Assembly (NCBI RefSeq): GCF_003334385.1
Contig: NZ_QOWN01000080.1
Source of the DNA: Escherichia coli
GTDB taxonomy: Bacteria > Pseudomonadota > Gammaproteobacteria > Enterobacterales > Enterobacteriaceae
Reading direction: 5' to 3' (one strand)
Length of the DNA: 5,623 nucleotides
Part shown: piece after piece, positions 2,527 to 5,623 of the stretch
Position numbering within the stretch: the first letter of the stretch is position 1
Layout of the letters: each line of letters begins with the position of its first letter
Made by a program: the position numbers and the translations under genes
The notes under the pieces: generated by a model
Databases searched by the model: none
What the model saw: only the letters and a program-made list of their open reading frames with translations
Told to the model about the DNA's origin: nothing

Positions 2527-2610
2527 GTCACTGCGATCAGCTATTAGCTGATTTAATTTTCATTTTATTACCTTCATCGTTTTTGATTTTTTAATTGAAC
2601 TATTTTATCA

Positions 2611-2634
2611 GGGGCGCATTGCGCCCCTTTTTTT
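2611..2634 (+). terminator. Rho-independent terminator closing the porin cassette
   Basis: GGGGCGC-ATT-GCGCCCC stem-loop (2611-2627) followed by TTTTTTT (2628-2634). Lies 15 nt upstream of the L start codon. Confidence 0.75.
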
Positions 2635-2648
2635 ATGGGTGGATGTTT

Positions 2649-3347
2649 ATGCAGGAGATCAACGAAGAAAGCCTGAATGAGTCGGTTAAATCAGAGCAGT
2701 CACCGCGGGTGGTACTCTGGGAAATTGACCTGACGGTGCAGGGTGGTGAGCGGTATTTTTTCTGTAATGAGCTGAATGAAAAAGGGGAGCCGGTCACCTA
2801 GCAGGGGCGGAAGTACCAGGCATACCCGATTGACGGCAGCGGCTTTGAGATGAACGGGAAAGGGAGCAGTGCCCGCCCGTCACTGACGGTGTCGAATCTG
2901 TTCGGGCTGGTTACCGGGATGGCGGAGGATTTGCAGAGCCTGGTGGGGGCCACGGTGGTTCGTCGCCGGGTGTATGCGCGTTTTCTGGATGCGGTGAATT
3001 TTGTGGCAGGCAATCCGGAGGCTGACCCGGAGCAGGAGCTGACGGACCGCTGGGTGGTGGAGCAGATGTCGCAGCTCACAGCCATGACGGCCTCGTTTGT
3101 GCTGGCGACACCGACGGAGACGGACGGTGCGTTGTTTCCCGGCCGCATCATGCTGGCGAACACCTGTATGTGGACCTACCGCTCTGATGAGTGTGGTTAC
3201 ACGGGCGGGGCGGTGGCGGATGAGTTCGATAAACCCACCACCGATATCCGTAAGGACAGATGCAGCAAGTGCATGCGCGGGTGTGAACTGCGCAGGAATG
3301 TCGGCAATTTTGGCGGTTTCCTTTCCATTAATAAACTTTCGCAGTAA
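2649..3347 (+). pseudogene. L: Minor tail protein L (lambda gpL-like) interrupted by an in-frame amber codon at 2799-2801
   Basis: ATG at 2649 (MQEINEESLNE...) to TAA at 3345-3347 is 699 nt, matching the lambda L length as I recall it. One TAG at 2799-2801 splits it into 2649..2801 and the track ORF 2850..3347, but the 16 codons between the stop and the next ATG (QGRKYQAYPIDGSGFE) continue in frame and read as tail-protein sequence. The track ORF start at 2595 would span the terminator hairpin and is rejected. Confidence 0.7.
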
Positions 3348-3357
3348 ATCCCGGTTT

Positions 3358-4101
3358 ATGACACAGACTGAATCAGCGATTCTGGCGCATACCCGGCGGT
3401 GTGCGCCTGCGGAGTCGTGCGGCTTCGTGATAACCACGACGGAGGGCGAGCGGTACCTGCCCTGTGTGAATATCTCCGCAGCGCCGGAGGCGTATTTTCG
3501 TATTGCCCCGGAAGACTGGCTGCGGGCGGAGATGCAGGGTGAGATTGTGGCGCTGGTTCACAGTCATCCCGGTGGTCTGCCCTGGCTGAGTGAGGCAGAC
3601 CGGCGACTGCAGATAAAAAGTGCCCTGCCCTGGTGGCTGGTCTGCCGGGGTGACATTCACAAATTCCGCTGCGTTCCGCACCTGACCGAACGGCGCTTTG
3701 CGCACGGGGTGACGGACTGTTACACGCTGTTCCGGGATGCATACCATCTGGCAGGCATTGATATGCCGGATTTTCACCGTGAGGATGACTGGTGGTGCAA
3801 CGGTCAGAACCTTTACCTGGACAATATGGAGGCAACGGGCTTTTACCGGGTGCCCCTGTCCTCTGCACTGCCGGGCGATATCCTGCTGTGCTGCTTCGGC
3901 GCATCGGTGGCTAATCATGCCGCCATTTACTGCGGCAACGGTGAACTGCTTCACCATCTGCCTGAACAACTGAGTAAACGGGAGAGGTATTCCGAAAAAT
4001 GGCAACGACGAACGCATTCTGTCTGGCGTCACCGCCACTGGCACGCATCTGCCTTCACGGGGATTTACAACGATTTGGCCGCCGCTTCAGCCTGTATGTG
4101 A
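3358..4101 (+). CDS. K: Tail tip assembly protein K (lambda gpK-like) with JAB/MPN (JAMM) and NlpC/P60 domains
   Basis: ATG at 3358 (MTQTESAILAH...). JAMM motif HSHPGGLPWLSEAD (H-x-H-x7-S-x2-D). NlpC/P60-like Cys (GVTDCYTLF) with downstream His residues (NHAAIYCG, LLHH). The track ORF start at 3097 is an out-of-frame read-in over the L 3' end and is rejected. No obvious Shine-Dalgarno; start is 10 nt after the L stop. Confidence 0.8.
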   Translation: MTQTESAILAHTRRCAPAESCGFVITTTEGERYLPCVNISAAPEAYFRIAPEDWLRAEMQGEIVALVHSHPGGLPWLSEADRRLQIKSALPWWLVCRGDIHKFRCVPHLTERRFAHGVTDCYTLFRDAYHLAGIDMPDFHREDDWWCNGQNLYLDNMEATGFYRVPLSSALPGDILLCCFGASVANHAAIYCGNGELLHHLPEQLSKRERYSEKWQRRTHSVWRHRHWHASAFTGIYNDLAAASACM

Positions 4102-4679
4102 ACACGGCGGCGGAAGCCATCCGCGCCCTGTCGCTGCAGGTGCCGGGATTCCGCCGTCAGATGAACGAAGGCTGGTACCAGATACGCATTGCCGGTGAGG
4201 ATACGGCACCGGAGGCGGTGTATGCCCGCCTTCACGAACCACTGGGTGAGGGAACGGTTATCCATATTGTGCCGCGACTGGCCGGAGCCGGAAAGGGCGG
4301 ACTACAGATTGTGCTGGGGGCAGCTGCCATTGTGGGGTCTTTCTTCACGGCCGGAGCATCAATGGCGTTATGGGGTTCAGCCCTGGCAGCCGGTGGTTTT
4401 TCTGCCACCACGATGCTGTTTTCACTGGGTGCCAGCATGATACTGGGCGGTGTGGCCCAGATGCTGGCCCCGAAGGCAAAAACACCGGATTACCGCGCAA
4501 CGGATAACGGCAGACAGAACACGTATTTTTCCTCACTGGACAACATGATTGCCCAGGGCAACCCGATGCCGGTGCCCTACGGTGAAATGCTGGTTGGTTC
4601 ACGACGTATCTCTCAGGACATCAGCACCCGTGATGAAGGCGGAGACGGAAAGGTGGTGGTTATTGGTCGACAGGGATAA
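3999..4679 (+). CDS. I: Tail assembly protein I (lambda gpI-like)
   Basis: 226-aa ORF with RICL-GDLQRFGRR near the N-terminus and a Gly/Ala-rich hydrophobic segment followed by QNTYFSSLDNM, as I recall for lambda I. Overlaps the K 3' end by 103 nt in another frame. Confidence 0.8.
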   Translation: MATTNAFCLASPPLARICLHGDLQRFGRRFSLYVNTAAEAIRALSLQVPGFRRQMNEGWYQIRIAGEDTAPEAVYARLHEPLGEGTVIHIVPRLAGAGKGGLQIVLGAAAIVGSFFTAGASMALWGSALAAGGFSATTMLFSLGASMILGGVAQMLAPKAKTPDYRATDNGRQNTYFSSLDNMIAQGNPMPVPYGEMLVGSRRISQDISTRDEGGDGKVVVIGRQG

Positions 4680-4692
4680 AACATAAAAAAAT

Positions 4693-4717
4693 CCCGCAGT
4701 GATCGCGGAGCTGCGGG
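4693..4717 (-). terminator. Probable intrinsic terminator oriented for minus-strand transcription
   Basis: Inverted repeat CCCGCAG (4693-4699) and CTGCGGG (4711-4717). On the minus strand the stem is followed by T7 (plus-strand A-run 4685-4691). No T-run follows it on the + strand. Confidence 0.45.
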
Positions 4718-4788
4718 GACAGACAAATGAAGATTAATGTTAAGGAGTTGTTTTTGTTACTCGGGCAAAAAAACACTAACGCAGCGAA

Positions 4789-4816
4789 ATTATAAGCGCC
4801 ACAGTCAGTGTGTGAA
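4789..4816 (-). promoter_or_regulatory. Candidate sigma70 promoter on the minus strand (TTCACA-N16-TATAAT)
   Basis: Read on the minus strand: TTCACA (complement of 4811-4816), 16-nt spacer, TATAAT (complement of 4789-4794). Fires toward the minus-strand terminator at 4693-4717. Confidence 0.35.
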
Positions 4817-4890
4817 AATGTGAAGATATTCAGAATTTTTATGCCATTACCGGTTTTAACCAACAGGATTATCGGTGGGCATGAAAGAAA

Positions 4891-4918
4891 ACCCCGGTAT
4901 CTGCTGATACCGGGGTTT
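4891..4918. terminator. GC-rich hairpin with T-rich flanks on both strands; possible bidirectional terminator
   Basis: ACCCCGGTATC (4891-4901) pairs with GATACCGGGGT (4906-4916), 4-nt loop. Followed by TTCTGTTT on the + strand and by TTTCTTTCAT on the minus strand. Confidence 0.4.
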
Positions 4919-5021
4919 CTGTTTAGCATGGCAGAAATGTGTTTCATGCTTTTCGGGCGAAGGATATCCGACTTCTGTACGGAATGGCAAGTGGCGGTTA
5001 ATTTATTCAGGGGAAGGCTGT

Positions 5022-5623
5022 ATGGGAAAAGGTGGCGGTAAGGCACACACGCCTCGTGAGGCGAAGGATAATCTCAAATCCACGCAGATGATGAGTGTGA
5101 TTGATGCGATTGGTGAGGGACCGATAGAAGGTCCGGTGAAGGGACTGCAGAGTATTCTGGTGAACAAAACCCCGCTGACGGACACGGACGGTAATCCCGT
5201 GATACACGGTGTGACTGCGGTCTGGCGTGCCGGGGAGCAGGAGCAGACACCGCCGGAAGGCTTTGAGTCCTCCGGGGCGGAAACCGGACCAGGCGTGGAG
5301 GTGACGAAGGCAAAGCCGGTGACGCGCACCATTACGTCCGCGAACATTGACCGCCTGCGGGTGACCTTCGGGGTGCAGTCACTGGTGGAGACCACCTCAA
5401 AGGGTGACCGTAACCCGACGTCTGTCCGCCTGCTGATTCAGCTTGAGCGTGGTGGTAAATGGATGACGGAAAAGGATGTCACCATTAACGGCAAGACCAC
5501 CTCGCAGTTCCTGGCGTCGGTGATTCTGGATAATCTGCCGCCCCGGCCCTTTAACATCCGGATGGTCAGGGAGACGGCGGACAGCACCACGGACCAACTG
5601 CAGAACAGAACGCTGTGGTCGTC
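5022..5623 (+). CDS. J: Tail tip / host-specificity protein J (lambda gpJ-like), N-terminal part; continues beyond the window
   Basis: ATG at 5022 preceded by GGGGAAGG (5010-5017). N-terminus MGKGGGKAHTPREAKDNLKSTQ... and later GEQEQTPPEGFESSG, PPRPFNIRM, STTDQLQN match what I recall of the lambda J N-terminus. Frame is open to the window end. Absent from the ORF track because no stop codon falls in the window. Confidence 0.85.
   Translation, partial: MGKGGGKAHTPREAKDNLKSTQMMSVIDAIGEGPIEGPVKGLQSILVNKTPLTDTDGNPVIHGVTAVWRAGEQEQTPPEGFESSGAETGPGVEVTKAKPVTRTITSANIDRLRVTFGVQSLVETTSKGDRNPTSVRLLIQLERGGKWMTEKDVTINGKTTSQFLASVILDNLPPRPFNIRMVRETADSTTDQLQNRTLWS

Follow-up and report, generated by a model that had tools for sequence, protein, structure and literature searches.

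A lambdoid prophage of Escherichia coli carries an amber codon inside its tail-tip (hub) gene L. The question raised by this locus is whether the stop is a real mutation and, if so, how it arose, how old it is and what it would do to the tail. The DNA analysed, here called 'the window', is 5,623 bp long and is the entire contig QOWN01000080.1 of draft assembly GCA_003334385.1, the two sequences being identical.

Gene L and its interruption by one amber codon

The window holds the distal tail module of a lambda-like prophage in the order H-M-porin-L-K-I-J, all on the plus strand. The C-terminal end of tape-measure gene H (2-748), intact and cut by the contig end, is followed by M (741-1082; PF05939), an OmpC-like porin gene (1289-2452; 387 aa; WP_000738902.1, 'porin OmpC'; PF00267), L (2649-3347; 232 codons plus the stop), K (3358-4101; a C40 peptidase), I (3999-4679) and the N-terminal part of the tail-fibre gene J (5022-5623), which is open and cut by the other contig end. 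M, the porin gene, K and I are intact, so that all frames other than that of L are open on the contig. Gene I comprises 226 aa when it is started at ATG 3999, versus a start at GTG 4098 in the RefSeq annotation of relatives.

The gene order H-M-L-K-I-J is common to lambda and this prophage, and the position of L fits a lambda-type tail module with a porin gene inserted between M and L. Whereas M and L abut in lambda, they are separated here by the porin gene and by a terminator-like GC hairpin with a T-run at 2610-2638 (plus strand), which lies 3′ of the insert and ends 10 nt before the L start codon. Another hairpin, at 2472-2501, is located between the porin gene and this stronger one. The GC content is 44% in the porin gene versus 58% in L.

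The L frame runs from ATG 2649 to TAA 3345-3347 and would encode 232 residues were it not for one internal stop. This stop, TAG at 2799-2801 on the plus strand, is codon 51 counted from ATG 2649, and stands in place of the TGG of Trp51. The mutated base is 2800, which is A here and G in all relatives compared base by base.

The restored L protein was compared with TIGR01600, the NCBIfam equivalog for phage minor tail protein L. It scores 365 bits against the curated cut-off of 70.75, with residues 11-230 matched to model positions 1-224 of 224 in a single stretch (E 8e-110). PF05100 matches it over residues 31-230 (E 2e-92). The predicted 50-residue N-terminal fragment upstream of the stop (2649-2798) corresponds to TIGR01600 positions 1-39, and the residual 165-codon open reading frame that begins at the first ATG past the stop (2850-3347) to positions 57-224. 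Because a single family model crosses the stop, L is one interrupted gene. The preliminary description, which had reported a lone TAG in a 232-codon frame with L-like sequence on both sides, is borne out by these matches. The alternative that L genuinely ends at codon 50 and is followed by a separate gene finds no counterpart among the orthologues, which are continuous 232-codon genes without a separate downstream gene; the annotated relatives all have one gene of 699 nt.

Lambda gpL itself has the same 232 residues and aligns without gaps, 1-232 to 1-232, with the restored protein (E 6e-125). Both have Trp51, and both have the four cysteines at 173, 182, 205 and 212 that in lambda hold the 4Fe-4S cluster. 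The lambda gene (NC_001416, 13429-14127) has TGG at codon 51, as the preliminary description had it, unlike this prophage with its TAG. Since the frame of a functional L family member is uninterrupted and this one is broken at codon 51, L on QOWN01000080.1 is, as sequenced, a pseudogene copy of the TIGR01600/PF05100 family. It should be labelled as a pseudogene in annotation (internal stop, Trp51 amber).

A base private to one contig

Window positions 2600-3400 are matched at 800 of 801 bases by six complete E. coli genomes (2015C-3121, 2018-166, G1/2, G6/7, G8 and NCTC9112). The lone mismatch is 2800, A here versus G there, as seen base by base in 2015C-3121 and NCTC9112; strain 2018-166 also has G at the equivalent position. 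In these close relatives L is intact, 699 nt long and annotated as WP_021565053.1. All other relatives spanning the site (ED1a, the NCTC assembly UGDE01, QOYC01 and JAIQNT01) have G at 2800 as well. The stop thus departs by a single base from otherwise identical intact genes and is no accident of a frame that merely happens to be open.

The ancestral codon was read from an alignment of orthologues. TGG occupies L codon 51 in 10 of 10 aligned alleles, phage lambda among them, and Trp51 is retained even in the distant homologue of Pseudomonas F2-pyocin. The codon has thus gone from TGG (Trp) to TAG, a state private to QOWN01000080.1. A search of 5,426 complete E. coli genomes with a 71-base query centred on the stop gave 2,701 matching places, none of them exact. 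A TAG-containing 20-mer, built to tolerate a known allelic base at 2795, had no match in IMG/VR or in JGI metagenomes, versus at least 120 IMG/VR contigs for its TGG version, and a TAG-containing 33-mer had none among GTDB representative genomes.

Strain 2018-166 allows the surroundings of the stop to be compared. It differs from the window at 22 positions, clustered in H, M and J, and between 1092 and 4337 (3.2 kb) base 2800 is the sole difference. Among all relatives compared, only two bases are private to the contig, 2800 and 5096. The latter is a C-to-T change that is synonymous in Ser25 of J (AGC to AGT); as another C-to-T transition without effect on the protein, it is in keeping with real drift. 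The contig has no further decay downstream of the stop. Because the stop is the only difference across 3.2 kb and its neighbours are intact, the lesion is recent; unless it is an artefact, it must be very young.

At first sight, metagenome assemblies suggested otherwise. The exact 50-aa L fragment occurs in 48 index blocks, and 8 of 9 inspected metagenome contigs carrying it (loci L005-L013) end precisely at 2799; the 47-aa prefix was found on 11 contigs and the 53-aa prefix on 8. A widespread G/A polymorphism at 2800, at which an assembly graph would branch, was considered for these ends and rejected, as an allelic SNP at 2744 together with k = 55 accounts for them best. Strain 4/1-1, which represents a common L allele, carries C at 2744 but matches the window at every base of 2745-2810. 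Alleles of the two kinds merge in the 55-mer 2745-2799, 55 being the metaSPAdes default k, and contigs therefore stop at 2744 + 55 = 2799. This merger probably explains the contig ends, though perhaps not those of all the 'METAG-scaffold' contigs.

One metagenome contig of another kind, assembled by MEGAHIT (ENA ERZ27255881 k141_58879; L014 hereafter), does have TAG at L codon 51, on a different allele background. Its terminal 25 bases include GTG ACC TAG CAG GGG CGG CAA TAT. Six complete genomes have this allele with TGG instead.

These searches also bear on whether the stop is tolerated or even used, with full-length gpL still made by means of an amber suppressor tRNA of the host or prophage or by programmed recoding. 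No positive evidence speaks for readthrough; the UAG here precedes a C, a context regarded as comparatively weak for termination in E. coli. Recoding sites are conserved, whereas this stop is not conserved among orthologues (TGG in 10 of 10 alleles; in IMG/VR, no TAG versus at least 120 TGG): the searches of isolate genomes and viral contigs gave no further TAG, and its sole other instance is the end of L014. A suppressor tRNA or RNA element within the window was sought by tRNA and Rfam scans, which gave no tRNA gene and no Rfam element there. Natural readthrough at a low level would provide only trace amounts of a structural protein that is needed at three copies per tail. We therefore judge a tolerated or recoded stop to be extremely improbable.

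The Dcm site at codon 51

The codon for Trp51 belongs to an ancestral CCTGG at 2797-2801, a Dcm (CCWGG) site, which is kept in 10 of 10 alleles and now reads CCTAG. On the minus strand the site is CCAGG, and its inner C, the base that Dcm methylates, lies opposite G2800; G2800 to A is the change of this inner C to T, a C:G to T:A transition. The second C of CCWGG is the methylation target of Dcm; deamination of 5-methylcytosine leaves a T:G mismatch in CTWGG/CCWGG, which is countered by very-short-patch repair with Vsr, and such sites are known in E. coli as hot spots of mutation (PMC2715241, PMC3527292).

How special this position is can be counted. There are 78 possible single substitutions that create a stop in L, only 2 of which, at 2800 and 2817, hit the inner C of a Dcm site. 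Among stop-creating transitions the Dcm inner-C targets are 2 of 18, and the observed change is one of these. For a single event, falling in this hot-spot context has p of about 0.03-0.11 under uniform alternatives.

Many E. coli strains have Dcm, and Dcm sites also underlie the classical amber hot spots in lacI and lambda cI; the work on 5-methylcytosine hot spots in these two genes is said to be that of Coulondre and Miller and of Lieb. The present case is like them in having a CCTGG ancestor, a C:G to T:A change at the methylated inner cytosine and the amber product CCTAG. The classical ambers arise by CAG to TAG at CCAGG on the coding strand, whereas in L it is the template strand that bears the methylated C, and TGG becomes TAG.

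We consider it highly probable that the stop is a real and very recent spontaneous nonsense mutation, most likely generated through deamination of 5-methylcytosine at the Dcm site. The sequence context suggests deamination as the cause, with the site presumably methylated in the host. A G:C to A:T transition in the isolate's lineage would have turned Trp51 (TGG) of L into an amber codon (TAG). For this, the minus-strand 5-methylcytosine at CCTGG would have deaminated to thymine, and the resulting T:G mismatch would have evaded Vsr repair and then been fixed at replication. Translation would consequently halt after 50 residues, leaving no gpL with an N-terminal hub domain and a C-terminal iron-sulfur domain.

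The main competitor is that the A at 2800 is an error of sequencing or assembly, a wrong consensus base in a genome where the gene is intact. The A is unique among thousands of copies and comes from a draft assembly, in a contig of 5.6 kb with prophage repeats at its ends. Moreover, another assembly of this prophage family has clear technical indels. This is the NCTC assembly GCA_900449675.1 (UGDE01000001.1; loci L017 and L004), with single-base indels in homopolymer runs at window-equivalent positions 1995, 2602, 2756 and 3614. They split the porin gene, L and K and probably stem from consensus errors of long-read sequencing, not from biology.

On the other hand, the change at 2800 is a substitution and not a homopolymer indel, and the remainder of the contig is free of suspicious differences. 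It also falls on one of the two Dcm-target nonsense positions in L, for which the probability under random error is about 0.03. Repeat collapse or cross-mapping of reads is ruled out as a source of the A because every paralogous L allele examined has G. Taken with these points, an error is unlikely, though less so than any other alternative considered here. A second assembly of the same isolate was searched for with the H fragment at the contig end and none was found, so that the A rests on one draft consensus; a literature search for the assembly and contig accessions found no mention of them. As a private substitution in a draft contig, it should be confirmed in the reads before any biological conclusion is built on it.

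GCA_900449675.1 had itself been taken up as a candidate for a second TAG case, as it yields the same 165-aa fragment. It was rejected, because codon 51 is TGG there and the T-run at 2756 has lost one base, which is what breaks L.

L014 was likewise not accepted as an independent recurrence, given that its TAG is 20 bases from the contig end and that the query itself selected stops at codon 51. It is weak evidence for recurrence and may reflect either a separate mutation of the same Dcm site or an error near the contig end. If it were genuine, the event may have been seen twice, in QOWN01000080.1 and in L014. That the CCTGG at Trp51 is a recurrent mutational weak point for the tail tips of E. 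coli prophages, or that the strain has a natural amber suppressor, which would make the prophage conditionally viable in the wild, is a bolder proposal to which we give very little weight. The sequence at L codon 51 concerned in it is NCCTAGCAG, and the second Dcm target is at codon 57 (2817), where CAG would become TAG.

Tail tips, porin cargo and prophage decay

The preliminary description held L to be essential for the tail tip, in agreement with the structure of the lambda virion (gpL structures PDB 8IYK, 8IYL, 8K35, 8XCG and 9E7M were compared). gpL has an N-terminal beta-sandwich and a C-terminal domain whose 4Fe-4S cluster is held by Cys173, Cys182, Cys205 and Cys212, and the domain limits used here are those of the same study (PMC10721106). 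The 50-residue fragment is the only product predicted in the absence of suppression. Restart at ATG 2850 would give a product without residues 1-67 of the N-terminal beta-sandwich, and inspection by eye upstream of this ATG gave no good match to a Shine-Dalgarno sequence. As the 50-residue product has neither the N-terminal hub nor the Fe-S domain, the prophage by itself should, by analogy with lambda, make no functional tail tips.

The median number of L copies per L-carrying E. coli genome is 2, which makes supply of gpL in trans by a co-resident prophage conceivable; an amber suppressor of the host is conceivable as well. Tail production by the prophage of the window alone should not be assumed. 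Strains G1/2, G6/7, G8, EC2 and SCU-104 each contain two prophages with closely related L alleles.

Lambda mutants of the same type exist. Amber mutants called 'sus', in tail genes including L, reportedly form part of Campbell's conditional-lethal collection. They resemble the present case in that an essential tail gene carries an amber codon, with no tails expected without a suppressor and rescue expected by supE or supF. They differ in being laboratory-selected, whereas the amber described here lies in the wild-type-like prophage of a sequenced isolate and is known from sequence alone.

Could the stop instead belong to a long-standing domestication, in which an old cryptic prophage is kept for its porin gene and L has decayed along with the rest? 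This had been put forward in the preliminary description, together with the suggestion to look for inactivating mutations in other phage genes. The porin gene is indeed intact inside the tail operon. At least 80% of the window is covered in 91 complete genomes, and the porin insert is found in many E. coli prophages. Related prophages of other strains have a broken portal gene, J or tape-measure gene.

Within the contig itself, H, M, K, I and the start of J are all intact, leaving the L stop as the only inactivating mutation, and this stop is private to the contig and is its sole difference from 2018-166 between 1092 and 4337. The same porin gene is carried by relatives with intact L. Furthermore, loss of tails would give the host no protection from killing on induction, and no host benefit is evident. 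A private and isolated stop fits long-term domestication poorly, and the proposal that a cryptic prophage was kept for its porin is not supported; we regard it as very improbable. The lesion looks like a very recent one rather than a mark of long-term domestication. The L stop is in any case uninformative on selection for the neighbouring porin gene.

Disabling lesions are scattered among the relatives. With L intact, 2018-166 has a frameshifted portal gene, 2015C-3121 a frameshifted J and a split porin gene, and ED1a a split J. In G1/2, the second prophage has frameshifted tape-measure and I genes and a fragmented J. Among 102 L copies in IMG/VR, about 4-5 are frameshifted, that is, about 4-5% have disabling lesions.

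Because broken genes are frequent in this prophage family and L lesions occur at 4-5% in IMG/VR, the stop is ascribed to ordinary prophage decay; both the event and its mechanism are of a kind already known. Like other E. coli prophage pseudogenes, such as the frameshifted portal, J, I and tape-measure genes of the relatives, L has a single disabling lesion in a structural gene. Unlike them, it bears the only visible lesion in 5.6 kb, and this is a substitution and not an indel. The locus offers a tidy natural case of a textbook mechanism, an amber codon from a Dcm 5-methylcytosine site.

A minor observation concerns the spacer between I and J (4680-5021), which is 342 bp long here versus about 60 bp in lambda. 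Its minus strand has a near-consensus promoter-like site at 4816-4789 (11 of 12 matches), followed by a terminator-like hairpin at 4709-4693, and its plus strand has a 10-bp GC hairpin with a T-rich tail at 4892-4915. The spacer has no Rfam match and a fold z-score of -1.4. The small RNA svsR of lambdoid prophages was considered for this feature and dismissed, since svsR maps to cI instead. A small transcript may nevertheless arise from this spacer.
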